64,000 nucleotides of DNA from an uncultured Candidatus Saccharibacteria bacterium. Its GTDB lineage: Bacteria > Patescibacteriota > Minisyncoccia > Phycocordibacterales > UBA2100. The position numbers and the translations under genes are program-made. Of the stretch, positions 9,277 through 64,000 are shown piece by piece. The stretch spans positions 79,499 to 143,498 of the forward strand of contig CAYYEX010000003.1 of NCBI GenBank assembly GCA_964471165.1. Direction: 5' to 3'. Under the pieces are notes generated by a model that saw nothing but the letters and a program-made list of their open reading frames with translations, was not told the origin of the DNA and did no database searches. Positions within the stretch are counted from its first letter, which is position 1. Each line of letters starts with the position of its first letter.

Positions 9277-9283
9277 CCCGGCA

Positions 9284-9300
9284 GTATACCCCGTGAGATA
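9284..9300 (-). promoter_or_regulatory. copy of the 17-nt motif TATCTCACGGGGTATAC, oriented toward prfB. It ends 7 nt before the ATG.
   Basis: Exact motif on the minus strand. One of seven copies in the window. Confidence 0.5.
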
Positions 9301-9338
9301 TTTTGTGAATCTATCGCAACGAATCGAAAGATTGTGTT

Positions 9339-9355
9339 TATCTCACGGGGTATAC
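9339..9355 (+). promoter_or_regulatory. copy of the 17-nt motif TATCTCACGGGGTATAC, oriented toward the tRNA-Thr genes. Divergent from the prfB copy.
   Basis: Exact motif 64 nt upstream of tRNA-Thr(CGT). Confidence 0.5.
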
Positions 9356-9418
9356 AGTCGCATTGATTGAAAAAGCGAGCGGAATAGCGTATTCTCTCTC
9401 TGTTTCGTCTCAGTTTTC

Positions 9419-9494
9419 GCCACCTTAGCTCAGTTGGTAGAGCATCCCCTTCGTAAGGGGAGGGTCCCCGGTTCAAATCCGGGAGGTGGCTCCA
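9419..9494 (+). tRNA. tRNA-Thr (anticodon CGT), CCA encoded
   Basis: Acceptor stem gccacct pairs with aggtggc. Anticodon stem cccc/gggg with loop ttCGTaa. T-loop is ggttcaaatcc. The 3' end reads tCCA. Confidence 0.8.
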
Positions 9495-9549
9495 GGTTGT
9501 ACGCAAAAAATTTTTGTGTGGGCCTCTGTGTGTCGATGGTTTAGTTGGT

Positions 9550-9567
9550 GTAGTGCCGATGTAGCTC
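9550..9567 (+). repeat. 18-nt direct repeat gtagtgccgatgtagctc. This is a copy of the leader plus first 13 nt of tRNA-Thr(GGT); the second copy is at 9663-9680.
   Basis: Exact 18/18 match lying 113 nt upstream of the real tRNA 5' end. The intervening sequence contains the hairpin ctccgg-tgtaa-ccggag. Confidence 0.8.
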
Positions 9568-9667
9568 CCAGCTTCGCTCGTATGTGCTCGAGCTTCGCAG
9601 GACAAGCAGTAGGACTTTTCACTACCGCTTGCACTTCGAAGCTCCGGTGTAACCGGAGCGTAGTAGT

Positions 9668-9743
9668 GCCGATGTAGCTCAGTTGGTAGAGCACGTCCTT
9701 GGTAAGGACGAGGTCTCCGGTTCAATCCCGGACATCGGCTCCA
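9668..9743 (+). tRNA. tRNA-Thr (anticodon GGT), CCA encoded
   Basis: Acceptor stem gccgatg pairs with catcggc. Anticodon stem cgtcc/ggacg with loop ttGGTaa. T-arm is ctccggttcaatcccggac. The 3' end reads tCCA. Confidence 0.8.
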
Positions 9744-15559: not shown

Positions 15560-15597
15560 CATGCAACATCCCCGCTACACTGCGGGGATGTTGCATG
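15560..15597. other. perfect 16-bp hairpin (catgcaacatccccgc-tacact-gcggggatgttgcatg) in the intergenic region between two surface-protein genes
   Basis: Seen in the sequence. Lies between the stop at 15618 and the next start at 15511. It may be a terminator or attenuator without a clear T-tract, or an operator. Confidence 0.6.
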
Positions 15598-15617
15598 AAA
15601 ACAAGACTTTTTCGAGC

Positions 15618-31335: not shown

Positions 31336-31342
31336 GATAATT

Positions 31343-41079: not shown

Positions 41080-41080
41080 A

Positions 41081-47716: not shown

Positions 47717-50700
47717 TCACGGCGCGGCAGCCTCAAAGTAATTGGTGCCGGACTGCACGCCAGTCCCCGTCGGAATCGGAATCGCGATACCCCAGTAGAC
47801 GTCACTGCTCGTCGGCGTAGACGAGGCCGTTACCTTTGGAATACTCAGGCCCGCGTTCGTTGATGCGCCAGTGAGGAATGCACAAACCGAGCAGGCTGAA
47901 TACGTAAATGTACTTGTAGAGTACTGCTGACTACCGACCGGTATCGAGCCAAGCGCCGTCCCCGAGAGTCGAATATCTGTCGGAACGTTTCCGGTATTGA
48001 GTACCGTGGTCGTAGCGACACGAGAGCCCGTGTCGGAGCCTGGCGTCATGCCAGGAACGGCGTCGTCATCGTATGTAATAGAGGTGCTCACCGATAGTCC
48101 GCGCACCGTGAGCATCTCCGCACCACTTGATGTGGCAGACCCATAGAGACCCGAGGCATCTCGTACACGCACACTTGCAAGCCAGTTTTCAGCACTATAC
48201 GTAGTGCCCGAATCGGTTGGGTCTGCGAAATACTGCACCAACGCCGAGCACGTGAGTGTGCACGAATTACCAGAACATAGGGTGAGCGAGCACGACGGAA
48301 CCTTGTAGCAGTTGTTGTCGTTGCCTGTGCACGAGGAGCCGACACCGGAGCGGAATATTGATGACGACGCCGCCAAGATGTCGGTGTATCCGTTGAGGTC
48401 GGTTACGGTACCAGTTGCAGATATTGTGGTTGTGGTGCCTTCGGTGAGCGGGATTCCGGAGATTGTTTGGCTCAGCGGCCAATTGAAGTTTGTGATAGAC
48501 GGTGAGTGAGCAATTACCACTTCGGCAACGTGGTCGTAACTATCGAGGCTACCCGGGAACGCCAGTGATGGGCGCGATGTGCGGAAACAGTATGCACTTG
48601 CGATCGCATTTGTGGTGAGCTGGAAATTATATTCGACTTCGGTCGCATAGTTTGTTCCGACATTGTTCGAGGACGAATCATTCGATGGATCCTCGACCGC
48701 CTTGCCTTGGACAAAGCTCATGTTTGCCGGACGGGAGAGCAAGTCTGAAATTGCGGCCTGGTCGGCAAATTGCGAAGACGTGGTCATACATGCCGCTTTG
48801 CCGTTACATCCAGAAGAAGTTTTCGGTACATCCTCGTAGTCATTGTATGAAACAGATTCGCAGTTTAACGAATTACCCTTCGGCGCAAATTGCAGACGCA
48901 GCTGCTCGCTCGTGAGTGCAGAGCCGGTATTTTGCACGGTGAAGCGCACACGTAGGTTCTGCCCCGTCTGCATACCATTGAGCACAGTGTCTTCCGCTGC
49001 AGCCCAAGTCGCGCCTCCACTCGTTTGTTCACCGCCGAAGAGATACGTCGGTGCCGCAGCAACATACGGACGGGCCGAATAGAAGTCCCAGCCTCCGTGC
49101 TGGTACCAGAAGCCGAAGCCCATACCACCTGTTGTGTACGCAGAACTTGTGCCGCTGACGGTTGCGAACACCGCACCCGCGCTGTTGTAGACCGTTACAT
49201 TGATCGCGTTGCCAGCGCTCAGCCAGTCAATCTTCACCTCATACCAACCAGTCGTAAACGTTACTGTTGTAGACGCAATCAACGTACCGCTACCGTCGTT
49301 CGATGTTGCATCTTTCACGAGTGCCACCTTTTCAGTCGGGTACTGATCGAGACAGACCGCATAGTTCGAACCGGAACCCTGTACCGCAAAGAACGTACAC
49401 GGCTCATCTTCCCAATCGATATCCATGTACTGGAAGAAGCGAATCGTACTGTCGCGCGGAATCAGCGAGCCAGCGCGGTAGACACCACCAGCGGTTGTCT
49501 TTGAACTTCTCTGATCGGGGTCAGGCGGTTGTCTCGCAGCAAGTCCATAGGTGTAATTGTGCTGGAAGCCCGCATTTGTACCAAAATACACATTCGGAGT
49601 GTCCGCGTTCGTATATTCCGTAATGTTATTGTCCTCGAAGTCGTCGAAGAATGTGAAGGTGTTTGATCCGTCACCACCGTCCGATACCCCTGAGTTCCCA
49701 TAGTACATATAGACAACAGCAGAACCGTTTGCGGGAATTGACGAAAGTCGCACCCAGACGGTCGACGATGCAGAGGCGATCGATTTCTCTATATAGTATG
49801 GGATGGTTGTTGTGCCGGTTGAGTCGGTGAAACGCAAGTCTTCGAAGTCACTCTGCATATCAGAATCGTAATCAACGACGATCTGCACTGCCTGATTTGT
49901 GAGTGTGCTTGCTGTAGAATTTGAGATCGCAATTCTCTTTCGCTTCGTCCACGACGCGTTGTACCATTCGCTGTCCGGCACGCCAACGCCACCGTCGTCT
50001 GCACGCCATCGGTAATGGCCCTGGTTCACGAACAGACACGCGCTGTCGCTCCATCGTACTGAGCCGCACGAGTCTCCCCCGTCGCTGTCGTAGCTTTCTC
50101 CGGCGAAGTTTCCATTGTGGTTGAGGAACGTCCACGCGCTGATTGGACTCCCCGTGCGCACAACGTTGAAGCCACTCGATATACCGGTTGTCGTTGCAAA
50201 CGAAACGTAGTTAATTTGCTTACTTGCGTTGGCATCTATTACCGAGCCGGCAAGCGTAATCATCGCGCCGCCGGTTACACCGAGCTGGATGTCGCCGTAA
50301 TCGAGCGAGGTGATGCTCGGAGTCCCCGAGAAGTTTAGACCGCTCGGGTCGGTATTTCGGATTTGGTAGTGTGATGCGTTGAGCGTGCCGCCCGTTACAG
50401 AGAACGCAAAGCGTCCGGCCCCTTGATTCTGAATCGTAGTCGTGGCGGTTGATCCCAAGATTTCGAGTGTGCCGCCGGAGAGCGTAACCGATGAAGAGGA
50501 TGCTATTTTTACATTCACCCTGCGAGATAAGCCTCCGAGCAACGTTCCGTCGAAGTCGTATGCGTAATTCCAGTAATCCGTGCCCGTGGAGTGAACAAAC
50601 GCACCCCAGATATAGAGATCGCCGTCGACTGACGTGCCATCGATTGCCGCGTTGTCCTGCGAATACAAAGAGCCCGTACTGTTGACCGTCGTTGTCGCAG

Positions 50701-53700
50701 CGGTTGAATTCCACATGCGCACATGTGTGCTTGTCCCAACAGAGAGCGTCCCGTATACGTCACTGCCTGCAGACTTTGTATTAATAGAGTAACTCGTTCC
50801 GGAGTAAAGCGAGAGCGTGGTTGTTGCCCATGTGGTTGCGGCACCACCCACGCCATTGGTGAATACGCCGCCAACCGCAAGTGTTTTTCCGTTTGCGAGC
50901 GTGAACGATGCTGCTGCACTAATAGTGGTGTCTACAGTTGAAGTCGCATTTTGCGAAATAGTCCAACCGCCGGTTGCACTATTAAATATGAGGGATGCAA
51001 AACTTGAACTGCCCGTGTCCACAGTCTTCCCTGTTGTTGTTGCGTTCAATGTAACGGTGCCACTACCCGCAGTAAATCCGCCACCCGCCGTATTCCAGGA
51101 ACCCCCGACCGTAAATACTCCAGTCGGCAATGTGGTAGTGCCGTTCAAAATCGTAAAGTCGCGCGTCGCTGTTGCATTTGTGTCTGAGAACGTCCAGCCT
51201 CCGCCGACACCGTCGACGAGCACATTGTAGAGCGACGAGCCCCCGGTCCGTATCAACTTACCGGTAGCGTTTGCAGTGAGCTTGAGTGTTCCGGTGCCAA
51301 CTGTGAGCGTGCCAAAATTCTGGATTGAACCACCGACTGTAAGCTGTGTTGTGGGTGCAGTCACTGTTCCAGTTGTTACGGTGAAATTGTTTGACGATGT
51401 TGCGGTCGAATCTACGAACGACCACGTGCCGCCTGAACCATTGAAGTCGATGTTATAGAGTGAGCTGCCGTTCACACGCACGCTCTTGCCAGAGGCGGTC
51501 GAATTCAGAAGCACCGTACCGTTGTTGTGCTGGAAGATGCCGCCCGTGTTTTGGAACGAGCCGCCGATTGTCGTAGTTGCACTCGGCATCGTTACTGTGC
51601 CTGTTGTAATCGTGAAGTCGTTGAGCGCAGTCATTGTACTGCTGCCGAAAGCCCAGTTGCCGCCGATTCCATTAAAGACAACGTTGTACAAACTAGAGGT
51701 ATTGAGCGTAATTGTTTTTCCGGTGGTCGTTGCGGTCATGGTGAACGTGGAGAGCGCGCTCGTGAGTGTGGCTCCACTGTCTATTAATAGAGAGCCGCCG
51801 ATTGAGTGCGCTTGTGCGCCAGATGCAGTGAAGGTTGCCCCCGGGAATACTTCGAGCGTACCGTCCCACGCAGTTCCCGAGCCCCCGCTGGTAAGCGTGA
51901 CGTTACCTGCCGGCGCAAAAGTCTTGTTTGTAAACACGATGAGTTTGATGTTCGGCTCGACTACGAGCGTGTTTGTGCCGGCAATCGTTGCATTGAACGG
52001 AATATCGCTATCCTGGTCGGAGTCGTATTGCGTCATCGCTGCGATCGTTATTGGGTTTACATCTTCGTGACGAACAATCACGCGATTCTCGTAGAGATGC
52101 ATGTTGGAAATACTGCTAATCGGATCAACAGAGACGTTCGCAGCACGTCGCCCACCAGCAGTGTCGAGGAATACAGTAATAGTGTCCCCTGGATTGAACG
52201 CAACACCCGGGATTGAATAGAGGCCAGTCGACGAATTGCACGAAGATGTGTAGCTCCCGGCTCCCTGAATCTTCAGTCGTACAACTTGAGTGGAGTTATC
52301 GCAGACGGTACTCACGGTTGTTCCTTCGTCGGAATACACATTGCCCTCGATTGTGATGTTGGACGCGCTGTCATCCCATCGGAGGTAGCCCGGATCACCC
52401 GCTGGATCAGAGTCGAGTGCCTCGCCGTCGAAGTCGCCGTAGTGCAGATTGAATTTCCATGATGAAACCGAACTCCCGGTCGCAAGCACGTTGAATCCTG
52501 ACCCCACTGCGGTGGAGAAATTGTTTCGTGCGAAAATCTTGAGCGGATTTGCGTCAATAACTGAGCTGGCAACCGTAATCATCGTGCCACCGTTCACATT
52601 CAGGAGATAGTCACCGTCGGAAAGCGAGGTGATGGTCGGCGCTCCCGAGAAACTAAGTCCGTTCGTGTCGGTATCGCGCAACTGATAGTACTGCGCATTG
52701 AATGTGCCACCTGTGACCGTGAACGCATAGCGACCCGCCCCTTGATTGGCAATGGTTGTCGTGGCGGTACTCGTGCCTGCGATATCGAGTCCTCCACCTG
52801 AGAATGTGAGCGAACTTGATGTTGCAATGCGCACACTCACCGCGCGCGGTGTTGAAGTACTCAGCGACGTGCCGTCGAAGTCGGTTACATAGCTCCAGTA
52901 GTCATTGCCAGAGGAGCGCGTGTAGGCTCCCCAGATGTAGAGGCTGCCATCAACTCCTGCGTGGTCCTGCGAGTAGAGCGAACCAGTGGAGTTTACGGTC
53001 GTTGTCGCAGCCGAAGAGTTCCACATGCGCACACGGGTGGAAGCATCAACAAGCAGTGTTCCGTATGTGTCTCCCGTGCTCGAACGTGTGTTGAGTGAGT
53101 AACTTGTACCCGAGTAGAGCGAGAGCGTCGACGTTGCCCACGTTGTCGCAGAATCAGTAACCGAGTTGGTGAACGTGCCACCGACCGCGAGTGTTCTGTT
53201 CGGTGAGAGCGTGAACGCACTTGCGTTGGTAATCGACATGTCGTTTGTCGACGTAGCGTTTTGTGAGATCGTCCATCCGCCGCCTATACCGTTAAACACA
53301 AGTCGGTAGAACGAAGATGCCCCTGGATCTATCGTTTCTCCGGTGTCAGTCGAGTTAAAGTTTACGTCGCCGTTTGAATGCGTAAACGCACCCGCGTTAC
53401 TCCAACTGCCGCCAACATTGAACACGTTCACGTTCGAGGCGGTCACTATACTCGACGCCCCGATTGCTACGTTGCCGCTCACTGTGACCGTCGGATCGTT
53501 CGTGTTTATATCTACGGATACCGGATTCGCGCCACCGATATTCAATGCGGTTGCAGAGAGCGACCCTCCGCGAAGTGTGTACACCGGTGTACCCGCAGTT
53601 GCAGGAGTGAAATAGAGTGCCGCGTAGGACGTATCGGCAATCGTTGTGGCAGCGCTCGAGGTAAAGAAGAACGGCGCAGTCTGTGCATTGAATGTACCGT

Positions 53701-56700
53701 TCACGATAAACGGTGTGTTTGCGCCGGTGAGTACCCAATTCGTGGAACTCGCGTTGAGCGTCTGTCCGGTTGCAATAATGAGCGCGTTGGAAACAGTCGT
53801 GGAACCGACACCCGTTTTGGATGTGGTATCTGTGGTGCCCGAGCCAAATACAAGACTGTTGAAACTCCACGGCGAAACACTGCCGAAGACGCCCGTTGCT
53901 GAGAGTTGTACGGTACCGCCAGTCATCGCGATTGTACCCGCGCCGGTCATGCTTCCCGCAGAAACATGAAGGTCTCCCGTGCCAGATAGCGTACCCGCAC
54001 TTATCGTAAACGTGTTGCTTGCAGTGGTCGTGGCCGTACTCACAAGCGACCATCCGCCGCCTACTCCGTTAAAGATGAGGTCGTAGAATGAAATCGGAAT
54101 GCTGGAATAGATGACCTTGCCAGACGTGGTCGCGGTAAATGTGAACGTTGAGTTCGCCGTCGTAAACGTGGCACCCGAAGCAACAGCAAGTCCGCCGCCG
54201 ATGCCGTGTGTCTCGGTACCGGTTGCGACGAATGCCGAGCTTGTGGCAAGCATGAGTCTGCCGTCACGTGCATCACCTGAGCCACCGCTTGTAAGCGTTA
54301 CGTTTCCCCCCGGTGTAAATGTTTTTCCTGCCCACACGTAGAGTTCGGTGTTTGGACTCAGTGTAAATGTTGCCGGTGGTGTGCTCGTGGCGGCGGCAAA
54401 CGGAATGTCGGAGTCCTGTGTATTTGTGAACACAGCAACCTGCTCAATCGTAATCGGCGAGGTGTCCTCATGGCGGACAATGACCGCATTTTCATACAAA
54501 TCAAAGTTTGCAATGTCGGTCGTTGGAGTGCGCGAAATGGTAACCGCTCGCCTGCCGCCGTTTGTGTCGAGAAACGCAGTGAGCACGACTTCGCCGGCGA
54601 TTGCGACGCCCGCAATTGAATACGCTCCCGTACCTGCGTTGCACGAACCAGTATATGAGGTCACACCGTTTACAACCACACGTACCGACTGTGTCGAGCC
54701 GTCACATGGTGGATTTCCGATTGCAGTGGCGCCATTGTCCGAGTACACCCGACCGGCGACTGTGATGGTGAGATTCGAGTCATCCCATCGGATGAATCCG
54801 GGATTTCCACCTGGATCGATATCAAAACTTTCACCCGCATAATTTCCATAGTGATTACGGAACCACCAATACGAACTCGGTGTTCCCGTTTCGGTAATGT
54901 TGAATCCTGTGGTGATGCCGGTCGAGGTTGCAAAACTTGCACGTTGAATCTGCAGCGCAGCGTTTGCATCGACTACGGTACTTGCAATCGTGAGCATTGT
55001 GCCTCCGTTTGAACTCAAGACGTAATCGCCGTCGGCAAGTGAAGTCACGGACACTGAGCCTGATATATTGAGACCGTTTGCATCGGTGTTTCGTACACGA
55101 TAGTACTGCGCGTTGATGGTGCCGCCTGCAACATTCAATGCATATGCGCCTGCTCCCTGATTCGAGACGGTGCTCGATGCGGTTGCGGAGCCGATGAATT
55201 GCAGGAGTCCCCCATTGAACGTGAGTGTCGAGGACGAGGCGACTTTTACATTGACCGCGCGTGCGGAACCGCCGAGCGGCGTACCGTCGAAGTCGTTTCC
55301 GTAGGTCCAGAATTCGGTACCAGCACCGCGCGTGTAGTCGCCGTAGATATAGAGGTCTCCATCGACGCCCGCATTGTCTTGTGAATACAGTGAGCTCCCT
55401 GATCCGACCACCGCAATCGTCGTCGAGGAATTCCACATACTTACCTTTGTGCTCGTAGAGAGCACCAGTGTCGCGTACGAATCCCCCGCATTCGTTTTTG
55501 TATTAATAGAGTACGTACCGCCCGAATACAACGTGAGCGTAGTGCCAGTCCATGTCGTGCTCGCCGGTGCAAGCGAGTTCGTGAACGTGCCTCCCACGCC
55601 GAGCGCGAAACCGCTCGTGAGCACAAATGATGCCGCATTGTTGAGAATAAAGTTATTTGTTGACGTTGCGCTCTGCGAGATGGTCCAGCCACCGGTGGCG
55701 CTGTCGAAGAGCGTGTTATAGAACGAAGATGCGCCCGGTTGAATGGTGTATCCCGACCCTGCGGCATTGAATCGCACGGAGCCGTTGTTGTGCATAAAGG
55801 CACCACCCGCATTCGTCCATGAGCCACCAACCGCAAAGGTTCCGGATGGAAGCGTGGGCGTACCGCTTTCAAAGCGGACACTACCGGTTGACGTTGCAGA
55901 AGCATCGTTAAAGGTCCACGTGCCGCCGGAGCCGGAAAACGTAAGGTTGAATGTATCGGAGCCGGAGAACTGCAGTACCTGCGCGTTCGTTGCAGTGAGT
56001 TTTAGTGTGCCGTTGTTATGCGCAAACGAACCGCCAGTTTTTATGAATGAGCCTCCAACCACGAGTGTTCCTGTTGGGAATGTCACCGCACCCTGCGTGA
56101 TGCGCATTGTTCTGGATGACGTGGCGTTCGCGCTACCAAACGACCACGCTCCAGTGCCTGAGAATGTGAGGTCGTAGAAACTCGAGGCGCCGGGAGTTAC
56201 CGATTTACCGGCGGACGCAGCGTTAAACAGAACGACTCCATTGTTGTGCTGGAACGTACCAGCACTTGTTGTAAACGAGCCCGTAACCGTCGTGGTGGAA
56301 GAAGGAAGCGTAACTGTTCCCGCAGTGAGCGTGAGGTCGTTGCCGGCAGTAACAGGACCGGTGAATGCCCAGTTTCCTCCAGTACCGTTGAAGACAATAT
56401 TGTAGAAACTTGAAGAGCCCGGCGTGATTGTCTTTCCCGTTGTCGTTGCCGTAAACGAAACCGTTCCATTCTGTGCAAGAAATGAGTTGTTATTTGTGAA
56501 ATTGCCCAGAATCTCGAGCGCGTAGTTACTGTTTACGTTGAACGTGTCGTCAGCGCCGATTGTAAGATTGGTAACTTTTGCGGCCGCACCGAGAAGTACG
56601 GTTTTCGCAGTTCCGTCAATGGTTGTGGTACCGAGGTCCTGTTTTGCAACCGTATTATCCGTCCATGTCGAAGACGACGTCCCGTCGAATGTTGTCGTTG

Positions 56701-59700
56701 CACTCCCCTTTGCAAACACGCCGGAGGCACCGAAGGTAAGATTTCCACCAATAGTTACCTGCTGGGAGCCAGGCGAGAGCGTGCCGAAATTGACCGTGAG
56801 CGTGCCGTCGACATCTAAGAGACTCGAAAGTGTCCACGTGGCCGCGCCAGAGCTTTGCCCGAACGTTACGTTATTAAATGTTGCGAGTGTTGCCCCCGTT
56901 GAGTCGATTGATTGGCTCGACGTTGTTGCGGTGAAAATGATGGTCGATGCATCTTTATTGAAGGTGGCGTTGTTGTCCCACGAGCCCGAGAACGAGAGCG
57001 TGTTGCCGTCGGCGGTAAGCGTCCCGTTGTTTTCCAATCCGTACGCGGCTACGTTTCCGCTCGAAGCGCTGTCAGGACGGAATATGTTGGAGGCCTTAAC
57101 CCAAATTTCGATGTCGTTACAGGAGCCCGATGAACTCAAGCAAGTCGCAAGGTCGTTCCCCGCATCAACATCATAGAAAATATCTTCGTCAGCCGAAACC
57201 GAATTGTCGTATTGCGATATATTCGTATTCGTTATTGTTTGATTATCGTCGGAACCGAGAGAGAGATGATGTTCGTACATCGTAAGGCCCGTGACGTCTC
57301 CGTTGCCATCGTATTTGGTGATAGCAACGGCTTCGTTTGCTTCCGCTGCCCCGTCCACAAACACTGTTACGATGTCGTCTTCGAACACAGTAACGTTTGC
57401 AATGGTGAAGCTACCGCCAGAAATCGTAGCGGTCTTACCTGCCTGGACAACGCCGTTGACTGCAACGGCAACGATGCCGCTCGTAACGTTCGTTGACTGG
57501 TCGTACTGCTGAACAGTCCCGGAAACATTAATTCCTTGTGCCCAGGTGAGAGTCCAGTCGTTGAGTGTCGGGCAGTTACCGGAAACACAGGCGAGATCTG
57601 CTTTCATGCGAATGGTGCTGTAGGTGAGCCGGTTCACATTCGAAATATCTATCGGGGACGTGGTCGTGCCGGTCGAGTTGCCTGGAATAACGGCATCCGG
57701 AATCAGGGCCCACGAACTTGTTGATGTGAAGTATTCGACGTGGAGGCGCACTGTGCTCGAACCAGGTGTGGTTTTACTGAATGAAATGGCACCCCATTTC
57801 GGACCACTGCCATTACCAAAAACAATCGACGACGACTCAACAGTACCCGCCACGAACGCCGGGTAGCGTCGGGCCACGATATCGATTGGAATTGTTGGCG
57901 GTACGACTGTCGTTATGGAGTTTGTCTCTATCACCTGCTTGGTCGACCAGGTTGTCCCGTTCCAAAAACTGAATTCGTATTCAGTATCTGCATCGTCATA
58001 AACCAAAACCAGGATGAGCCCGTCCCCGGTACGTGCGGTTCGCACTTCTGCTGAGTCGAACATCGTGTTCATGACTGCCGGCGCCGTGGTTGCGCTTCCG
58101 TTCCAGGACTCGTACTCGATTTGTGTAGTATCAGAGTGAACCATCATCGTGTACCCGTCACGAGAACCCGCCGTCTCGTATTCACACGAGACGGGTCTGC
58201 CGTTGACGCTGTTTCCCAGTGCCTCGACTTCCGTAGTTCCACTCCACGATGAGCCTGTCCATGTCGCGTATCCAATATCGGAATCAGCATCGACGTAACA
58301 GAGCGTCATACGATCGGTTCCTACATCACGCGTAATACGACCGTCTTCGAAATCGTTTCCGGTTGCAACCGTTGAGGTTGCGGCCCACGCACTTCCGTTC
58401 CATGAGCTCCAGACAAAACTATTGAGTGTTCCGTTGGAGACCGCAATAACCGCCTGTCCGCCACTCTCCTCATATTCTGCGGCTATGCCCTCGTTGGCCA
58501 CCGTGGCCTGCGCACCCGGGCGCAAAGTATTTCCCCATGCTGAACCACTCCACACCTGCGCTTCATAGTCGACTGTGCCCGTGGTCGTGTCTCGCACAAT
58601 TAGTATGATTTCGTCCGACGTCGGGTCGGATATGAGCTTCACCCATTCGCAATTTGTTGAAACGCCCAACGTGATTGTAGAGGTCGCAGTCCAACTCGAA
58701 CCGTTCCATACGCGATATGTTGCCTCGGTTCCGTAACACGCCACCACGAGCGCATCCCCTGATGATGTTTCGTACGCAACATCAAATCCCCGCTGTGTTG
58801 GGTCGGAAACTGCAGTGTTCATGCGCGCAATATTTCCTGCTGTGTCCGTCACACCATCAATCACTTGTGCATCAACAACACCCGTTGAACCTTCGGTTGC
58901 AATGATGTATTCATCTCGCGTTGGGGCTGCCGCTGTTTCCTCGAAACGAATCGTGTCTCCAACAGACACTCCCGAAAGTTCACTTCCCCACACAAGTCCG
59001 TTCCAGAATCGGAAGCGCGGCACCTGTACTGTTAGCTCCGAATACACCATGAGTGCTTCTTTAATTGTGGTCGTGATTTGTGCCTTACCCGCACTCGTTT
59101 CAATGTCGGTGAGCGTGTTCGAAAGAAATTGTTCGTTTGTTGTTTGGAACCACGTTGATACGTTCACAGAAGTGTCGATAGTAAAGCTGCGCAAATCCGA
59201 CCACACCGACCACACATTGCCGCCTGCAGGGTCAATGGCGCGAACTTTCCACCAGTAGGTTGTTCCATCTGTGAGCGCATCGGCTGCTTGGAGTTTGAAA
59301 TTGATGAGATTGTTCTGGGTAAACGGAGATGTGTCCGACGAGGACGCACTGTTGGTGAAGCCCGCGTCTAGACTCGAGCGACGAGTGGTTGAAGCAGTAA
59401 AGTCCTGTGTGGTAGAAATCGTAACCTCGTATACGAGGTCGTCACTCTGTGGGTCGGTTGATTTGAACGTGAAAGTCGGCGTTGTTGTGGCTGTTTTTTC
59501 GTTGTCGAAGAGTGCTGTGACGGACGGCTGTTCAACCGCAAACCCCCATTGAATGGTCCAGTCAAGCAGGTGCGGCGTGAGGCCACTGTTTGTCATGTTG
59601 GCGCGCACCCGAATCTGGTTATAAATTGTCGGGCTCACGGAAAGGAGTGACACCGGAGACGTGTCGTACCCGACCGCGTTACCGGACAGGTCAGAATCCG

Positions 59701-62700
59701 GAATGAGTTCCCACGCAGCGCCGTCGTAGTATTCGATGTGATAGTGAATATCGCTCGATGTCTCGGTGTCCGTAAACGAGAGCTCGCCCCACGCGTTGCC
59801 GGTTGCCTTCCAATCAAAGTCGATGAGCGAACTCGAGGTGGTACCGGTCGTAAACGGCGGCGTAATGATGACATCGTTGGTCGATGTAGCTTCCGTATCT
59901 TCGTGGTCGTCGGATGCAAATTGGTAGAGCGTCGTTTGCTTCCACGTAGAAATAGTGACGGATGTATCGACTGTAAAACTCTGAATGTTCGACCATGGAC
60001 TCCATTCCGTTGATTTATTTCTGTCTTTTCCGCGGGCACGCCAGTAGTACGTGGTCCCGTTTGACAGTGCAGTGGTCGGCACAAAGCGCGTCGATTGCCC
60101 AGGTGTAAAAGGGTCCTTATCCGACGGAGTGGTGAGGTTAGTAAACTCGTCGAGGTTTGTTTGCGAATCACGGTCAATATTCACTGAACCAAATGCAGAA
60201 TCGTCATCGATTTGTATCTGGTAGGTAATGTCGTCGGACTCCGGGTCTTCGGACACAAATTGGAACCACGGGGTGGTCGACGCGAGTGACTCGTTGTTAA
60301 ATGGAGCCTCAAGAGTGGGAGCCCCTGGCGCAGAGTCTGTAATGAGACTTGGATAAAAATCGTATTCGCTCAGTGCAACGCCCGAGTCAGTAACAACACG
60401 GAAGCAGTAGTTTGTATTTCCACTCGCATTATGCTGAATCGCCCAGTCCCATTCACCTTCATTGCCTACTGAAACCGAGGTCGGGTTTGCAGCCGAATCG
60501 TTCGTTTCCTCGTAGCTTTCATTTGAGTCACTGACTAATAGCAATGTCGTCGGTACTGTTGCACCGTCGGAGAGTGACGCGTTATCATATCCTCGCCATG
60601 CGGCTGTGGTGGAACCTACCGCACCGACATCCTGCCAAGTCATAGACGCACTACACGTAGCCCCGGCGGCATATTGCAGCTTGAGTCGGAGGTCTCCAAC
60701 TGAGAGGGTCACGTTTTCATTCAGCACACCCATGCGTAATCGCAAAACGTCATTTGGAGATGGTGAATAAATCACCGGTATGGGTGAATCTTCTGCCAAA
60801 TCAGTACCACCCGAAGGCCATGCGTCGGTTGGTGTGAGCGACGTCGCATGATTTGCGTACCACCTGAAATGCGTTTGGGTGAGGTATGGCTGACGTTCCC
60901 ACGAAACAGACCAATCATCGATTTGTGGCGCGCTCGTGTTTGAGGTGCTAAACGAGGCGCGCAAACAAATGCGATTGTATGTCGATGTCGAAAGCGCGGA
61001 GATATTCATCGGCGACGAAGTGGCATCGAACCCGACGGAGTTCCCCGGCAGCGTGCCGTCGGGCACCAGCGTGGTGCAGCCGCTGCCGCCATCGTAGAGC
61101 ACCTGCACCACCACATCGGTGCCCGAGGGCTCCGTTGTGTGCCAGAGAATCTCGCCCCACGTCAGTTGGCTTGGCACGAGGTCAAAGTCGATAATACTGC
61201 TCGTCATGGTCCCGGAAGACGACTCGAACACTTGCGCCGCCATATCGATTGGCTGATAGAACGGCGTGGTTGTAGCGGAGGGCGTTGACTCAAGCGCCGT
61301 TGCTGTTGACCACGAGGTTCCATTCCAATCTGAGAAGTCGTAGCGCGAATTCACATCGTCGTGGAAGAATGCCAAAATTCCGCCCGCTGCAGTTCGCACA
61401 GAACTCACCGTCCACGAGTCTTGTACAGTGCTGATTGTTGCCTCCGCTGCCCACGACGTCCCATTCCAATATTGATAGCGAGCAGCGGTAGTATCAGAGT
61501 ATGAAAGCATCACGTAGCCATCGCGACCCGCAGTAGTTTCGTACTGACAATCCACCGCGCGCCCGGTATTCGCGTTGCCTACCGTATCGCGCTCATCGCC
61601 CGCCGCAGTAAATGCATCCCATGCATTTCCATCCCATACGAGGGTGCCTATGTCGGCATCTTGATCGATGTAACAGAGGGACATGGCATCCGAGCCAACA
61701 TCACGTCGGAGCCGTCCCCACTCGAAATCGTCACCGAGTGCTTGGGTTTGTGTAATACCCCATGATGTGCCATTCCACGAACTCCACACAAATCCGCTCG
61801 TAATCCCGTTGGATACTGCGATAATCGCTTGGTCACCTGATTCCTCGTATTCCACGGCGATTCCCTCGTGGGCGACATCAGACATTGAGCCCAGTGTCTT
61901 TACGTTCCCCCACGCACTGCCGTCCCACACTTGTGCTTCGTATATGGAACCAGTATCACGCTCAACGAGAATAATTTCATCGGAAAGCGGGTCGGCGGCA
62001 AGCTGAATGTATTCGCAGTTATTAGCGCTCGTGATGTTCACGGTTGCAGGAGCGCTCCATGACGAACCGTTCCACACTCGATACGATGGGTCGGCATCGC
62101 CGTCGCAATACACCGTCATAATGTCTCCGGAGACTGTTTCGTAGGCAAGATTAAATCCGCGCCGCTGGTTGTTTGTGACGCCGGTCGTCATTTCTGTAAC
62201 AGTGCCCCATGTGTCGGCAACGCCGTCGAATATTTGTACGTTCACGTCGTTTTGGTTGTCCTGTGTGCCGAGAACGTATTCGTCTCGTGTGGGCGATGCT
62301 TTTGTTATCACCCACTGAACAACGCCGCCGATGGAATTCGCGGAGCTCTCCGAACTCCATGCGGTACCATTCCAGATTCGGTAGCGTGGTGTTTGCACAG
62401 TTCCCTCTCCGTAGGCAACAAGTGCTTCTTCTGACGGAGAAATGGCGAGACGCGCGGCGTCGGAACCGAATGTTTCGGCTCCACTCATTGTATTGGTATC
62501 GAACTGCACATCAGTTGTTTGGAACCATTGCGATGGTTCAGTGCCCGCAAGGTAGGTAAAGCTCGTCGTGGTTGCCCACGCACCGTATGCTGAACCACTT
62601 TCTTTTGCTCGCACTCGCCAGTAGTACGTCGTACCGGAAACAAGCGGAGTCTGAATCGTAAAACGAACTCGTTCGGTTTCATTGAACGGCGAGGTATCTG

Positions 62701-64000
62701 CAGGCGTGGTTAAGTTTTGGAAACAATCAGGTGAGCAACCAGTTTCGACATCGGATGTTCTATCGCCAATCGGAGAAGAGTCGAGATCGGAGTCATCGTC
62801 CCACTGTACTTGGTACAAAATGGTGTCCACTCCATCGGGGTCCGATGCACTGAATTCGAAGACCGGTGTCGATGTACCCATTCGTTCGTTTGCAAACGGG
62901 ATGTCATAGAGCGTCGGCGCACTCGGCGAAGCGCCGCCGGCACGCTTTGCAAATACCGCAGTGCGGTATGGCGGAAGACTCGATGTTGTCGAAAACGCAG
63001 AAATGCTAATCGAGTGCACATGCGCTGCCGTCGATACGTTTGTGCCCGCAACGTTTGCTCGCGAGACCGTGCCACTCGGTCCCAACGAGTTAAATCCTGT
63101 AACATCGGTATGTGTGTGCGTGGAAGCGCCACCGCTGGTGCCGTATGTCGTTGATGCTTTTGCAAAACGATTCGCGAACGGTTCGGTAGAACTTGAAACC
63201 GTGCTCCAACCTGGCGGCGGATCTCCGCTCCACATCGCAATCATGTCGTTGGTTGGTGAGGATGTTGCGGTCAGTTTACCGAAGATAGCTTCCATGTACG
63301 GTGGTTCGTGAGTATCGCTCAGCGTTGTTGTGCTTACCGCGTGTGTGTGGGCAGCAGCAGCAACTGAAATGGCAGTGCCTGGGTTTTGTGCGAGCACGGT
63401 GGAAACGGCTGCGCCCGTTGTGCCAGAGACATCGTGTTTGTGCGTGTTTGAACCACCAGTCGTTCCGACAGTCGACGTACTTTCGCCGCGGATATAGCTT
63501 CCGTTTGGGGCAGTGTAGGCAGTCCAGCCCGAAGGGACCGCTGCATCAAACATTACAATTGCCCCTGCTGGAATGGTTGGTGGCTCTCCCGCTGAGGTGT
63601 ACTGAATGATTGCGAGCTGCCGGTATGCAGGCAAGGAACTCGTTGCGGTAACTGTTGGAGTAAGTGAGTGGGTGTGTGCAACAACCGGTGTCGCTTGGTT
63701 GTTTGCCCCAACTGTTTGTGATGCGGCGGAGGCAGTTACGGCGCCCGTTGCAGTGTGTGCAAATGTGGCCGCGCCACCATTAGTTCCAGCAGTCGATGAG
63801 CCCATGACGAAGCGTTGATAGAAACTGTCGGCGGGCAAGCACGATACGCATGTCCAGCTTGGTGGAATCCACGCTTGGTCCCAATACACCAACATGTTTC
63901 CGACGGCGTCGGAAGCGATTTTCCACTGACGCGGTTCCTCGAACGGTATACCGTCCCCACTCTGCACCTTTGCTGGGCCGAGAAGATACATGTAGGGAGA
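47717..64000 (-). CDS. giant multidomain surface protein, longer than 5424 aa and 5'-truncated (N-terminus beyond the window end)
   Basis: A single uninterrupted minus-strand ORF. It contains tandem phage tail-collar-like repeats (PSGWT...HTH...LPPY), three Fn3-like units, three copies of a ~140-aa domain, two propeller-like segments (EAQVW[DS]GSAWGN), beta-helix-like ~65-aa repeats (FYN..F.G.GG.W.F...GG.F.HNNG), three ~790-aa super-repeats, DUF2341 (RWRADDGG...DLRFTDSTGTTTIPYYIE...VYMYYGN), a LamG-like domain and a C-terminal module shared with the 37861 protein. Confidence 0.8.
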   Translation of the reverse strand, partial: SPYMYLLGPAKVQSGDGIPFEEPRQWKIASDAVGNMLVYWDQAWIPPSWTCVSCLPADSFYQRFVMGSSTAGTNGGAATFAHTATGAVTASAASQTVGANNQATPVVAHTHSLTPTVTATSSLPAYRQLAIIQYTSAGEPPTIPAGAIVMFDAAVPSGWTAYTAPNGSYIRGESTSTVGTTGGSNTHKHDVSGTTGAAVSTVLAQNPGTAISVAAAAHTHAVSTTTLSDTHEPPYMEAIFGKLTATSSPTNDMIAMWSGDPPPGWSTVSSSTEPFANRFAKASTTYGTSGGASTHTHTDVTGFNSLGPSGTVSRANVAGTNVSTAAHVHSISISAFSTTSSLPPYRTAVFAKRAGGASPSAPTLYDIPFANERMGTSTPVFEFSASDPDGVDTILYQVQWDDDSDLDSSPIGDRTSDVETGCSPDCFQNLTTPADTSPFNETERVRFTIQTPLVSGTTYYWRVRAKESGSAYGAWATTTSFTYLAGTEPSQWFQTTDVQFDTNTMSGAETFGSDAARLAISPSEEALVAYGEGTVQTPRYRIWNGTAWSSESSANSIGGVVQWVITKASPTRDEYVLGTQDNQNDVNVQIFDGVADTWGTVTEMTTGVTNNQRRGFNLAYETVSGDIMTVYCDGDADPSYRVWNGSSWSAPATVNITSANNCEYIQLAADPLSDEIILVERDTGSIYEAQVWDGSAWGNVKTLGSMSDVAHEGIAVEYEESGDQAIIAVSNGITSGFVWSSWNGTSWGITQTQALGDDFEWGRLRRDVGSDAMSLCYIDQDADIGTLVWDGNAWDAFTAAGDERDTVGNANTGRAVDCQYETTAGRDGYVMLSYSDTTAARYQYWNGTSWAAEATISTVQDSWTVSSVRTAAGGILAFFHDDVNSRYDFSDWNGTSWSTATALESTPSATTTPFYQPIDMAAQVFESSSGTMTSSIIDFDLVPSQLTWGEILWHTTEPSGTDVVVQVLYDGGSGCTTLVPDGTLPGNSVGFDATSSPMNISALSTSTYNRICLRASFSTSNTSAPQIDDWSVSWERQPYLTQTHFRWYANHATSLTPTDAWPSGGTDLAEDSPIPVIYSPSPNDVLRLRMGVLNENVTLSVGDLRLKLQYAAGATCSASMTWQDVGAVGSTTAAWRGYDNASLSDGATVPTTLLLVSDSNESYEETNDSAANPTSVSVGNEGEWDWAIQHNASGNTNYCFRVVTDSGVALSEYDFYPSLITDSAPGAPTLEAPFNNESLASTTPWFQFVSEDPESDDITYQIQIDDDSAFGSVNIDRDSQTNLDEFTNLTTPSDKDPFTPGQSTRFVPTTALSNGTTYYWRARGKDRNKSTEWSPWSNIQSFTVDTSVTISTWKQTTLYQFASDDHEDTEATSTNDVIITPPFTTGTTSSSLIDFDWKATGNAWGELSFTDTETSSDIHYHIEYYDGAAWELIPDSDLSGNAVGYDTSPVSLLSVSPTIYNQIRVRANMTNSGLTPHLLDWTIQWGFAVEQPSVTALFDNEKTATTTPTFTFKSTDPQSDDLVYEVTISTTQDFTASTTRRSSLDAGFTNSASSSDTSPFTQNNLINFKLQAADALTDGTTYWWKVRAIDPAGGNVWSVWSDLRSFTIDTSVNVSTWFQTTNEQFLSNTLTDIETSAGKAQITTTIKEALMVYSELTVQVPRFRFWNGLVWGSELSGVSVGDTIRFEETAAAPTRDEYIIATEGSTGVVDAQVIDGVTDTAGNIARMNTAVSDPTQRGFDVAYETSSGDALVVACYGTEATYRVWNGSSWTATSTITLGVSTNCEWVKLISDPTSDEIILIVRDTTTGTVDYEAQVWSGSAWGNTLRPGAQATVANEGIAAEYEESGGQAVIAVSNGTLNSFVWSSWNGSAWAATSTVATGNDFEDGRITRDVGTDRMTLCYVDADSDIGYATWTGSSWSGTTEVEALGNSVNGRPVSCEYETAGSRDGYTMMVHSDTTQIEYESWNGSATTAPAVMNTMFDSAEVRTARTGDGLILVLVYDDADTEYEFSFWNGTTWSTKQVIETNSITTVVPPTIPIDIVARRYPAFVAGTVESSSIVFGNGSGPKWGAISFSKTTPGSSTVRLHVEYFTSTSSWALIPDAVIPGNSTGTTTSPIDISNVNRLTYSTIRMKADLACVSGNCPTLNDWTLTWAQGINVSGTVQQYDQSTNVTSGIVAVAVNGVVQAGKTATISGGSFTIANVTVFEDDIVTVFVDGAAEANEAVAITKYDGNGDVTGLTMYEHHLSLGSDDNQTITNTNISQYDNSVSADEDIFYDVDAGNDLATCLSSSGSCNDIEIWVKASNIFRPDSASSGNVAAYGLENNGTLTADGNTLSFSGSWDNNATFNKDASTIIFTATTSSQSIDSTGATLATFNNVTFGQSSGAATWTLSSLLDVDGTLTVNFGTLSPGSQQVTIGGNLTFGASGVFAKGSATTTFDGTSSSTWTDNTVAKQDLGTTTIDGTAKTVLLGAAAKVTNLTIGADDTFNVNSNYALEILGNFTNNNSFLAQNGTVSFTATTTGKTITPGSSSFYNIVFNGTGGNWAFTGPVTAGNDLTLTAGTVTLPSSTTTVTGSFTTSAGTFQHNNGVVLFNAASAGKSVTPGASSFYDLTFSGTGAWSFGSANATSSRTMRITQGAVTFPTGTLVVGGSFIKTGGSFAHNNGTLKLTATNAQVLQFSGSDTFNLTFSGSGGTWTFNDASATSTGSVRFESGTPTLPSGTFAVGGSWTNAGGAFMHNNGSVRFNAAGSGYTIQPGASSFYNTLFDSATGGWTISQSATSTNNFILNNAASFVLTSGFALGVGGTFTNSLAPASTTWTGTTLTLYSGGTYSINTKTNAGDSYATLVLSTSTKVSMWNSSTTIAVVGSGSSLYSQDNAGVDGDLYIYGDYTRGAGTEFWTYGNDFDGTPLGGSARAVNVKVASSSTLTFNGGLLQFIGSATASSTVSNQGAGAYALNVAGGTINAQYYRVRNTDANGLNISGSVSVTSLADGDYVLSSNGGTMLTIASTVVDANAALQIQRASFATSTGITTGFNITETGTPSSYWWFRNHYGNYAGESFDIDPGGNPGFIRWDDSNLTITVAGRVYSDNGATAIGNPPCDGSTQSVRVVVNGVTSYTGSCNAGTGAYSIAGVAIAGEVVLTAFLDTNGGRRAVTISRTPTTDIANFDLYENAVIVRHEDTSPITIEQVAVFTNTQDSDIPFAAATSTPPATFTLSPNTELYVWAGKTFTPGGNVTLTSGGSGDARDGRLMLATSSAFVATGTETHGIGGGLAVASGATFTTANSTFTFTATTSGKVIYSSIPISFYDLIFNGVGGGWSLVSTATTTASNTFTISAGTLSGTGDLHVSAGSMTGAGTIAMTGGTVQLSATGVFGSVSPWSFNSLVFGSGTTDTTSKTGVGSTTVSNALIIATGQTLNASSTNWVLTGANTPFIVNGTFNAQTAPFFFTSSAATTIADTSYAALYFTPATAGTPVYTLRGGSLSATALNIGGANPVSVDINTNDPTVTVSGNVAIGASSIVTASNVNVFNVGGSWSNAGAFTHSNGDVNFNSTDTGETIDPGASSFYRLVFNGIGGGWTISQNATSTNDMSITNASAFTLSPNRTLAVGGTFTNSVTDSATTWATSTLSLYSGTSYSLNTRSSTGDTYGTLLVDASTRVRMWNSSAATTTVNSTGSLYSQDHAGVDGSLYIWGAYTRSSGNDYWSYVTDFDGTSLSTSTPRAVSVRIATSSSLTFSGGGLDIAGTSTATTTIANQGAGRYAFTVTGGTFNAQYYQLRDTDTNGLSFSGAPTITSLSDGDYLLNVNGGTMITVASSVIDANPLKIFARNNFSTAVGSGFNVLATGSSVSSWKFNLHYGDFDGEALDSDPAGDPGYLRWDDSASNITIEGNVYSDEGTTVSTVCDNSTQVVRLKIQGAGSYTSSCNSSTGLYSIPGVAFNPGDTITVFLDTAGGRRAANVSVDPISSISNMHLYENRVIVRHEDVNPITIAAMTQYDSDQDSDIPFNATIAGTNTLVVEPNIKLIVFTNKTFAPAGNVTLTSGGSGTAWDGTLEVFPGATFTASGAQAHSIGGSLLIDSGATLTSALSTFTMTATTTGKTITLNTSSLYNVVFNGIGGNWAFGSSTMTALNDFTITTGTVTMPSATTTIGGSFQNTGGIFQHNNGTVLLNSTASGKSVRVNGSSLYNIDFNGSGGTWSFVDSTATSSNNFTVTTGTVTAPTTQLTVGGSIQNFGTLTVGTGTLKLTANATGKLIRTGGSSLYNVLVDGVGGGWTFSDTNATATRDFTILNGTTTLPTGVFTVGGSWNTAGGGFTAGSGTVTLNATTTGKTVDTGSSSFASLIFNSATGGWTISQNATSTVDTTISAAASFTLANGKTLAVGGVFTNGVGGAATTWATTTLSLYSGTSYSINTKSAGSDVYGTLSVGTSTHVRMWNSTAATTTVNSTGSLYSQDNAAIDGTSVDGDLYIWGAFVHSTGTDYWNYAYDFDGTLLGGLSRRVNVKIASSSSVTLSGGTLEILGSTATTTIQNQGAGRFAFSVTGGTLNASHYQIRNTDPSGLNFSGTPSITSLDYGDIQLGVTGGAMITLAGSVIDANASKQINYVSFATTTGISSGFNVVRTGSPISAWTFLNHNGNFAGESYDSDGGDSCGSVRWSDSACLFVNQGHYRWRADDGGVGVPDSEWYNASWTKRKRIAISNSTASTLTNQAVQIVVDYDSDMQSDFEDLRFTDSTGTTTIPYYIEKSIASASSTVWVRLSSIPANGSAVVYMYYGNSGVSDGGDGSNTFTFFDDFEDNNITEYTNADTPNVYFGTNAGFQHNYTYGLAARQPPDPDQRSSKTTAGGVYRAGSLIPRDSTIRFFQYMDIDWEDEPCTFFAVQGSGSNYAVCLDQYPTEKVALVKDATSNDGSGTLIASTTVTFTTGWYEVKIDWLSAGNAINVTVYNSAGAVFATVSGTSSAYTTGGMGFGFWYQHGGWDFYSARPYVAAAPTYLFGGEQTSGGATWAAAEDTVLNGMQTGQNLRVRFTVQNTGSALTSEQLRLQFAPKGNSLNCESVSYNDYEDVPKTSSGCNGKAACMTTSSQFADQAAISDLLSRPANMSFVQGKAVEDPSNDSSSNNVGTNYATEVEYNFQLTTNAIASAYCFRTSRPSLAFPGSLDSYDHVAEVVIAHSPSITNFNWPLSQTISGIPLTEGTTTTISATGTVTDLNGYTDILAASSSIFRSGVGSSCTGNDNNCYKVPSCSLTLCSGNSCTLTCSALVQYFADPTDSGTTYSAENWLASVRVRDASGLYGSATSSGAEMLTVRGLSVSTSITYDDDAVPGMTPGSDTGSRVATTTVLNTGNVPTDIRLSGTALGSIPVGSQQYSTSTFTYSACSVCAFLTGASTNAGLSIPKVTASSTPTSSDVYWGIAIPIPTGTGVQSGTNYFEAAAP
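49950..57000 (-). repeat. three tandem ~2.36-2.4 kb diverged super-repeats inside the giant gene (approximate bounds)
   Basis: The landmark GGT.NA[QS][YH]Y..R.TD is encoded at about 55.10, 52.69 and 50.37 kb. The protein blocks SLYSG.SYS.NT...MWNS...LYSQD.AGVDG.LYI.G are colinear in each unit. Confidence 0.65.

Follow-up and report, generated by a model that had tools for sequence, protein, structure and literature searches.

We analyzed a 64,000-nucleotide stretch of DNA, called the window here, from an uncultured Candidatus Saccharibacteria bacterium (GenBank assembly GCA_964471165.1, contig CAYYEX010000003.1, forward-strand positions 79,499 to 143,498), one end of which is occupied by a single giant gene on the minus strand. 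Its frame runs from position 64000 to 47720 through 5,427 sense codons without interruption, closes at a stop codon at 47717 to 47719, and continues beyond the window edge. Gene calling on the source contig (ENA ERZ27247837 k141_1527275, 173.5 kb) gives a product of 6,362 amino acids (aa), of which the first ~935 lie past that edge. A preliminary description, made from the sequence of the window, had proposed a single open reading frame (ORF) of more than 16 kb running past the edge, and this is what we found. Tail-collar-like repeats, which it had placed toward the N-terminus, are also present, although ~935 aa separate them from the true N-terminus. From the N- to the C-terminus, the protein would consist of a hydrophobic signal-anchor and a Pro/Glu/Thr-rich linker (as judged from orthologs), a ~320-aa triple-repeat module, two and a half cassettes of small domains, a ~2,500-aa stalk, a distal DUF2341/concanavalin A (ConA)-like lectin head, and three Ig-like domains (Table 1).

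Table 1. Features of the giant gene, all on the minus strand. Residue numbers count from the window edge.
Feature	Residues (aa)	Window positions	Evidence
Giant ORF, C-terminal 5,427 aa plus stop of the 6,362-aa gene		47717..64000	Open frame, contig gene call
Triple-repeat phage-fiber-tip-like module	31-362	62915..63910	Self-BLAST, homolog alignment
Module repeat R1		63,599-63,904	Self-BLAST, homolog alignment
Module repeat R2		63,260-63,580	Self-BLAST, homolog alignment
Module repeat R3		62,927-63,247	Self-BLAST, homolog alignment
Fn3/Ig-like unit 1	366-485	62546..62905	Pfam Ig_Rha78A_N E 1.5e-4, Pur_ac_phosph_N_ E 7.5e-3 (fragment)
Eight-repeat W-[ND]-G-x-x-W domain 1 (putatively propeller-like)	516-935	61196..62455	Motif search
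~125-aa beta-domain, copy 1	~930/936-1060	60821..61195	Self-BLAST, three copies, 32-36% identity
"HFRW..." beta-domain	1063-1235	60296..60814	Self-BLAST E 1.8e-7 to aa 4994-5177
Partial cassette: Fn3-like unit 2 and beta-domain copy 2	1240-1345, 1384-1490	59531..60283	Self-BLAST, Pfam
Second full cassette: Fn3-like unit 3, eight-repeat domain 2, and beta-domain copy 3	1495-1610 (Fn3-like unit 3), 2047-2165 (beta-domain copy 3)	57506..59518	Self-BLAST
Stalk	~2170-4699	49904..57493	jackhmmer, self-comparison
Super-repeat SR1		54,026-56,350	Self-comparison
Super-repeat SR2		51,632-54,025	Self-comparison
Super-repeat SR3, truncated to 576 aa		49,904-51,631	Self-comparison
DUF2341 (PF10102)	4718-4793	49622..49849	Pfam E 3.3e-24, 85.6-86.7 bits vs 23.4 cutoff
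ConA/legume-lectin-like beta-sandwich (predicted)	~4795-4990	49031..49618	AF2 and Foldseek
Three Cys-rich Ig-like beta-sandwich domains (predicted)	~4995-5427	47720..49018	AF2 all-beta, high pLDDT; Foldseek

The giant ORF is a real gene. Logan assemblies of two other sequencing runs are 100% identical to the window over 15.9 kb and 10.7 kb, both of them across all three super-repeats of the stalk, and three independent assemblies (the source and the two from Logan) agree at 100% identity. An artifact could have arisen by the fusion of shorter repeat-bearing genes into a chimera or by the collapse or expansion of a repeat array, and the source is indeed a short-read metagenome assembly of a gene with internal repeats. 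However, the repeats are too diverged for misjoining (~65% DNA identity, with a longest exact direct repeat in the ORF of 17 nucleotides [nt]), the Logan assemblies of the other runs are identical across the super-repeats, and four complete and one near-complete orthologs, 41 to 60% identical to window probes, show a collinear layout in which each has three super-repeats. We therefore regard an assembly artifact as extremely unlikely.

The protein belongs to a known class of giant DUF2341 Patescibacteria surface proteins, and its most novel element is the triple-repeat module. Three tandem repeats of ~105 aa span aa 33 to 358 (62,927 to 63,904) with pairwise identities of 30 to 35%; they correspond to the tandem PSGW...HTH...LPPY repeats that had been noted at about 62.9 to 63.8 kb. 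Each repeat has the pattern G-x-I-x-x-[FW]...P-S-G-W, followed by GG-x3-HxH, a variable loop of ~28 aa, HTH, and (L/P)PY. The window module keeps 11 of the 12 histidines, the missing one being the first of motif A in R1. In a monomer model made with AlphaFold2 (AF2), the repeat cores have a predicted local distance difference test score (pLDDT) above 90 and the predicted template modeling score (pTM) is 0.66, with ~30% of the residues, including the loops, disordered. Foldseek found no match for this model in the PDB; a pseudo-trimer made of one chain would not be expected to match the single extended chains against which it is compared there.

The likeness to phage tail-collar domains had been proposed for these repeats. 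The Pfam Collar model (PF07484; a 57-position hidden Markov model [HMM] with a 24-bit gathering score) does not match the window module even at an E value of ≤5, none of 12 homologs carries a precomputed Pfam domain, and no direct match to the module was found in the PDB, in PHROGs, or in phage genomes (tblastn against 50,697 phage records). When 27 single repeats are combined into a profile, it matches the Photorhabdus virulence cassette (PVC) fiber Pvc13 (PDB 9qgo; E value of 5.6e-5) and gp60 of Pseudomonas phage Pa223 (PDB 9nxk; E value of 7e-4). Positions 1 to 20 of the profile align with Pvc13 residues 262 to 281. The matched fragments of both structures match positions 1 to 21 of Pfam Collar, that of Pvc13 fitting these positions only (29.6 bits), with no counterpart for the rest of the Collar model, and the link of the G-x-I-x-x-F-x(4-5)-P-x-G-W hairpin of the repeats to bona fide Collar proteins is transitive only, via Pvc13. 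Unlike Collar proteins, the window repeats do not have positions 22 to 57, with the ...LF..iG..yGG...F.LPDLRGR segment. The fiber regions have been described as resembling the gp37 tip and short-tail-fiber host-binding domains (10.1101/2025.06.11.659172; 10.1101/2025.04.20.649488). Three distant members of the repeat family, P0010, P0011, and P0012, match PHROG 5795 ("tail protein"), and P0011, a 457-aa protein on a phage contig (L011:10001-11374), has SU10-type portal and major capsid genes as neighbors. What stands of the proposed likeness is thus a remote homology, at the level of sequence profiles, to the fiber-tip superfamily of phages and PVCs; membership in Pfam Collar is not borne out by the HMM.

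A search of 1.84 billion cluster representatives with the single-repeat profile returned 4,738 of them at an E value of ≤1e-3 and 432 at ≤1e-30; no Pfam or NCBIfam model matches the triple-repeat family. We counted the repeats in those 144 of the 150 best matches whose sequences were newly retrieved. Three repeats were found in 117 of the 144 carriers, six in 24, and nine in 1, and only 2 broke the rule of multiples of three. Of the 142 carriers that keep the rule, 139 have their repeats in uninterrupted blocks of three or six. The linkers between repeats have a median length of 4 aa (range, 3 to 7), and the loop between the paired HxH motifs, at 25 to 32 aa, is constant in length and variable in sequence. 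Over 504 units, the four histidines are conserved at 89 to 98% at every one of the three repeat positions, and paired HxH motifs, the mark of gp37/gp12-type tips, are conserved in every protomer-equivalent. Each position has its own signature residues, and between proteins, repeats that share a position resemble each other more closely than repeats at different positions do. The pTM of the module is also higher than the value of 0.50 obtained for the C-terminal region, a better-predicted string of domains arranged like beads. Taken together, the triplet rule, the short linkers, the conservation of the histidines, the position-specific signatures, and the pTM speak for the three repeats being a single obligate unit. 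The module also occurs twice in P0243 (MBN2422330.1), a giant DUF2341 protein of 5,808 aa from a DPANN archaeon (Woesearchaeota).

The module is probably an imitation, within one chain, of a trimeric fiber tip and would provide two potential His6 metal sites. Fiber tips of the T4 gp37/gp12 type (Pa223 gp60, 9nxk; Pvc13, 9qgo; gp37, 2xgf; gp12, 1ocy), which combine Pfam Collar with an HxH "needle," are built from three identical chains, whereas the window protein has three diverged copies in one chain, joined by ~4-aa linkers. The three repeats would pack around a pseudo-threefold axis, with one chain imitating the trimeric tip, the six HxH motifs would form the two His6 sites, with octahedral Fe/Zn coordination if they follow the gp37/gp12 type, and the three variable ~28-aa loops between the HxH motifs would make up an exposed surface. 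In contrast to the phage and PVC tips, the module lies within a 6,362-aa chain and not at its C-terminus, and its metal sites and packing are predicted. Alternatively, the whole protein could be a phage-like homotrimeric fiber, in which each repeat forms a separate intermolecular trimeric node with its counterparts in two other chains. All solved relatives (9qgo, 9nxk, T4 gp37, and T4 gp12) are homotrimeric, and trimeric phage fibers include beta-solenoid-like stalks. Yet such an intermolecular arrangement does not need a repeat number that is a multiple of three, as seen in 142 of 144 carriers, nor does it sit easily with a distinct conserved signature at each position, linkers constant at ~4 aa, and a pTM of 0.66 reached by the module as a monomer. 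Fn3, ConA-like, and Ig-like folds, moreover, are usually monomeric, and the C-terminal region is modeled with confidence as a single chain. We consider the homotrimer unlikely. That the repeats define an uncatalogued, widespread family, in which an HxH metal-clamped, receptor-binding trimeric tip of phage fibers has been converted into a single-chain pseudo-trimer, is a broader proposal, for which we see the balance as even. If it is correct, a viral binding fold otherwise found only as a trimer could be inserted as a cassette into the monomeric giant adhesins of candidate phyla radiation (CPR) bacteria and DPANN archaea, the two ultrasmall episymbiont lineages concerned, and also into some phage tail proteins. 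Through the triplet rule, the conversion of a homotrimeric viral fold into a single-chain domain can be tested cleanly, and a family model built from the triple repeat could give a domain assignment to several thousand unannotated proteins.

Pfam was run at permissive thresholds on seven fragments of the ORF and NCBIfam on five. Within these fragments, Pfam recognized only DUF2341 and the Fn3-like Ig_Rha78A_N and Pur_ac_phosph_N, with no Collar, LamG, propeller, or beta-helix family, and NCBIfam returned nothing. The Fn3-like matches lie at aa ~376 to 482, ~1248 to 1343, and 1502 to 1607, confirming the three Fn3-like units of the preliminary description. Ig_Rha78A_N (PF25788) scores 51.9 bits for the whole protein over two stretches, against a cutoff of 27.4 bits; single units scanned alone score 21.8 to 22.4 bits, under that cutoff. 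The units belong to cassettes. The first (aa 366 to 1060) and the second full cassette (aa 1495 to 2165) are 40 to 52% identical over ~680 aa, and a partial cassette has no eight-repeat domain. Three small domains of ~140 aa, which had also been anticipated, were recovered as beta-domains of ~110 to 130 aa at aa ~930 to 1060, 1384 to 1490, and 2047 to 2165, and segments matching the beta-domain probe are present in orthologs as well. A further domain at aa 1063 to 1235, which starts with ...HFRWYAN and is conserved in orthologs, is a diverged copy (24% identity) of aa 4994 to 5177 (48470 to 49018); this pair received no family assignment.

The two segments described as carrying the motif EAQVW[DS]GSAWGN proved to be two eight-repeat segments of ~410 aa (aa 516 to 935 and 1640 to 2045), 49 to 52% identical to each other. 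The first has eight ~50-aa W-[ND]-G-x-x-W repeats spaced 47 to 56 aa apart; in the second, a regular-expression motif search detects six W-x-G-x-x-W repeats. The eight-repeat segment has no propeller match in Pfam and no sequence match in the PDB, and a propeller-like fold is plausible from the repeat pattern. Propeller Pfam matches in the homologs P0153, P0188, and P0201 were discarded, as they are positioned outside the homologous segment. The ~400-aa domain was found in more than 100 proteins. Of three inspected stand-alone homologs (~550 to 570 aa), two, P0187 and P0170, have a type IV pilin-like (prepilin-like) N-terminus (RGFSLVE...), P0187 also having PF07963. This suggests that the eight-repeat W-x-G-x-x-W domain may be a pilus-associated adhesin domain.

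The stalk is a long run of repeats, as had been described, with a unit of 76 aa (spacing of 73 to 78 aa) rather than 65 aa. About 17 significant copies were detected by jackhmmer, with the pattern G-x-SSFYN-x2-F-x-G-x-GG-x-W-T-F... and with cap and Ig-like inserts between them, and the 76-aa repeat shows about three sub-periods of ~25 aa. Neither Pfam nor NCBIfam matches the stalk, and phmmer and hmmsearch gave no significant PDB match for the 76-aa unit or for a whole super-repeat; a beta-solenoid or beta-helix-like fold is plausible from the repeat pattern. Three tandem super-repeats of ~790 aa had been placed at about 50 to 57 kb. There are indeed three, the third being truncated to 576 aa, with start-to-start distances of 2,310 to 2,415 nt and protein identities of 50 to 55%. 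Their DNA identity is 65 to 67% over alignable stretches of 255 to 754 nt and 61 to 79% over shorter stretches. Tandem Repeats Finder reported nothing on the giant ORF. Near-identical template and variable repeats, of the type associated with diversity-generating retroelements (DGRs), were not found within the ORF, where all direct repeats are at most 79% identical.

The super-repeats had been taken for an assembly-collapse hazard and a likely site of phase or length variation. With a DNA identity of ~65% over at most 754 nt, no exact direct repeat longer than 17 nt, three identical assemblies, and exactly three super-repeat caps in each of the four complete and the one near-complete orthologs, we reject both ideas. 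The three super-repeats are an ancient arrangement of the ~2,500-aa stalk. For genome curation, this means that the internal repeats of the giant gene are too diverged to endanger its assembly.

The stalk is followed by DUF2341, which 48 of the 49 aligned C-terminal sequences carry, the window protein included. The domain had been expected to start at about 50.02 kb; it is there (E value of 3e-24), with its start ~170 nt away. An AF2 model of aa 4690 to 5427, computed with these 49 aligned sequences, has a mean pLDDT of 89.9 and a pTM of 0.50. Foldseek against the PDB matched it with a probability of 1.00 to legume lectins, the alpha-amylase inhibitor (1dhk_B), galectin-10, and the C-terminal domain of thrombospondin-1 (TSP-1). 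The ConA-type matches have E values of 1.6e-4 to 7.6e-4 over ~160 to 260 aligned columns and include at least 15 legume-lectin chains. The model supports a ConA-like lectin/glucanase fold for the region at and after DUF2341; the predicted sandwich may include the DUF2341 segment, its boundaries being approximate. Compared with legume (L-type) lectins, the predicted fold matches with a Foldseek probability of 1.0 at a sequence identity of 11 to 15%. LamG and Laminin_G_3 (PF02210 and PF13385) gave no match at an E value of ≤5 in the window protein or ≤0.1 in the 49 sequences, and Lectin_legB likewise matched neither. The proposal of a LamG/concanavalin-like domain after DUF2341 is accordingly upheld for the fold, as modeled, and not for the LamG family. 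Among the three families named in the preliminary description, profile searches recovered DUF2341 and neither Collar nor LamG.

Foldseek related the string of predicted Ig-like domains that ends the protein to integrin legs, alpha-2-macroglobulins, and large bacterial adhesins (5irb and 6xi3). The cysteines of the C-terminal region are conserved across the 49-sequence alignment. About 70 homologs span the entire region, and all those with a named organism come from Patescibacteria (Minisyncoccia, Paceibacterota, and Kaiserbacteria). Searches of the PDB with phmmer and hmmsearch found nothing significant for this region, and no C-terminal anchor motif was found in the giant protein.

Orthologs in six Patescibacteria metagenome-assembled genomes (MAGs; loci L004-L008 and L010), 55 to 77% identical over the module, begin with a hydrophobic segment and a linker rich in P, E, and T; their module lies at about aa 935 to 980. 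P0269, P0297, and P0317 likewise start with a hydrophobic segment. Together with P0349 and P0339, these make up the four complete (5,625 to 6,510 aa) and one near-complete (5,515 aa) orthologs, all collinear with the window protein, with the same domain order and exactly three super-repeat caps each; their differences in length come mostly from the presence or absence of the first cassette. P0269 (MEX0931679.1), from a Paceibacterota MAG, was deposited as "DUF2341 domain-containing protein." A reverse transcriptase gene (RVT_1; L007:2081-3271, plus strand) lies ~4 kb upstream of the closest ortholog of the giant gene and could belong to a group II intron or a DGR. At the window copy, no reverse transcriptase and no DGR-like repeats were seen.

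The window is chromosomal, with genes for CTP synthase, FtsE/FtsX, release factor 2 (RF2), and three tRNAs, and its GC content is even at ~52%. Its surface-type neighbors include He_PIG/PD40 and Fn3 proteins, a MacB-type ABC transporter, and cohesin and dockerin proteins. In the L007 and L008 loci, genes for signal peptidase I, Hsp20, and then a cohesin-domain protein (L007:5372-7054 and L008:5388-6863) stand upstream of the giant gene, the last immediately so. Homology of the repeats to phage and PVC fiber tips, one phage-encoded family member, and a Peptidase_G2 domain in a second giant ORF nearby might suggest a prophage or contractile-injection-system fiber within a mobile element instead of a cellular surface protein. 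However, scanning of the window ORFs revealed no gene for a capsid, portal, terminase, sheath, tube, or baseplate, the locus is flanked by housekeeping genes, the upstream synteny is kept in the two related MAG loci examined, the orthologs have an N-terminal membrane anchor, and the GC content does not change across the window. A mobile-element origin is in our judgment very unlikely.

To our knowledge, how CPR/Patescibacteria recognize and attach to their hosts is largely unknown, and conserved giant surface proteins are prime candidates for this role. We consider it probable that the giant protein is an N-terminally anchored host-attachment fiber of a CPR bacterium (Paceibacterota/Kaiserbacteria-like). 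The N-terminus would stay attached to the cell, the long stalk would project outward, and the envelope of the host or partner would be contacted through several units that are candidates for ligand binding, namely the lectin-like head, both eight-repeat domains, and the fiber-tip module. The evidence supports the giant modular extracellular protein of the preliminary description and makes host attachment, which it had also suggested, the most reasonable function; we infer surface exposure, adhesion, metal binding, pseudo-trimer packing, and the propeller and beta-solenoid folds. Three candidate binding units (the ConA-like head, the pilin-associated eight-repeat domain, and the fiber-tip module) are separable and expressible.

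Several points weigh against a host-attachment fiber. The N-terminus of the window copy lies outside the window and is deduced from orthologs at 55 to 77% identity. The window repeats match neither Pfam Collar, nor PHROGs, nor the phage genome collection, R1 is one histidine short in motif A, and the module lies within the fifth of the protein nearest the membrane, whereas phage fibers have it at the tip. The case for expression, surface exposure, and binding comes from sequences and predicted models, the propeller and solenoid folds are putative, and the absence of matches would also be compatible with a catalytic role of the stalk. The protein might act chiefly as a weapon carrying an enzyme, such as a polysaccharide lyase or hydrolase of the beta-helix type attacking the host cell wall, instead of as a passive adhesin. 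Right-handed beta-helices are common among glycan-degrading folds, the 76-aa repeat region has no assigned function, and a link to cell-wall degradation has been proposed for the giant genes of predatory bacteria (10.1101/2023.11.21.568195). On the other hand, Pfam, NCBIfam, and PDB sequence searches found no catalytic family anywhere in the 5,427 aa, the repeats of the stalk form a regular array, and the recognizable domains are of binding or spacer types. We judge an enzymatic weapon unlikely, and like the homotrimer, the prophage or injection-system fiber, and the misassembly, it is less likely than an anchored attachment fiber.

An anchored attachment fiber has several counterparts among known proteins. 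Giant Patescibacteria proteins of more than 4,000 aa that contain FhaB and/or DUF2341 have been proposed to function in adhesion or host interaction (PMC11809585). The window protein shares with them the phylum, the size class, DUF2341, and an uncharacterized function with such a proposed role. No full-length homologs were reported for those giants, and rapid domain shuffling was suggested (PMC11809585), whereas the window family is collinear, conserved in at least six MAGs and five representatives, and fixed for the triple super-repeat. DUF2341 proteins have also been proposed as pilus-tip adhesins (PMC4858521). Like the DUF2341 proteins of type IV pilus loci (PilY1-type, arCOG03508; PMC4858521), the window protein has DUF2341 and a proposed distal adhesin role, and its eight-repeat domain is elsewhere fused to pilin-like N-termini (P0187 and P0170). 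Unlike them, it has no pilus genes among the window ORFs scanned, the N-terminus of its orthologs is a plain hydrophobic anchor and not a class III (prepilin) signal, and it is ~5 times larger. With long repetitive adhesins (the 1.5-MDa ice-binding adhesin 5irb, and 6xi3), it shares an anchor, a repetitive extender, and distal sugar- or protein-binding domains, but the extender is made of 76-aa solenoid-like units instead of Ig/BIg repeats, the anchoring end is N-terminal, and no RTX or type I secretion signal was detected.

Other genes of the window were also inspected. A MacB-type exporter pair (ABC_tran ATPase and MacB_PCD/FtsX permease; 39871 to 42427, minus strand) is encoded ~5 kb downstream, on the strand that also carries the giant gene. 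Small cohesin or dockerin proteins are encoded at 32875 to 33657 (plus strand) and at 33673 to 34668, 35632 to 36765, and 11435 to 13429 (minus strand), which hints at a possible cohesin-dockerin surface assembly system in these CPR genomes. The second giant ORF (22867 to 31533, minus strand; 2,888 aa) has Gly_rich_2 (aa 1751 to 1960) and Peptidase_G2 (aa 731 to 792) domains. Peptidase_G2 is the intramolecular chaperone (IMC) autoproteolytic domain of phage appendages, and this ORF is thus a second surface giant with a phage-appendage-like element within 64 kb. An ORF at 9225..9725 was considered as an upstream piece of prfB and rejected as spurious, as it has no CTTTGAC frameshift motif and lies antisense across two tRNA-Thr genes. 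Four consecutive ORFs of 357 to 446 aa (14438 to 19671, minus strand) may be another set of surface proteins, three of the four having weak matches to WxLIP_PGBD (peptidoglycan binding), one of them above the gathering score.

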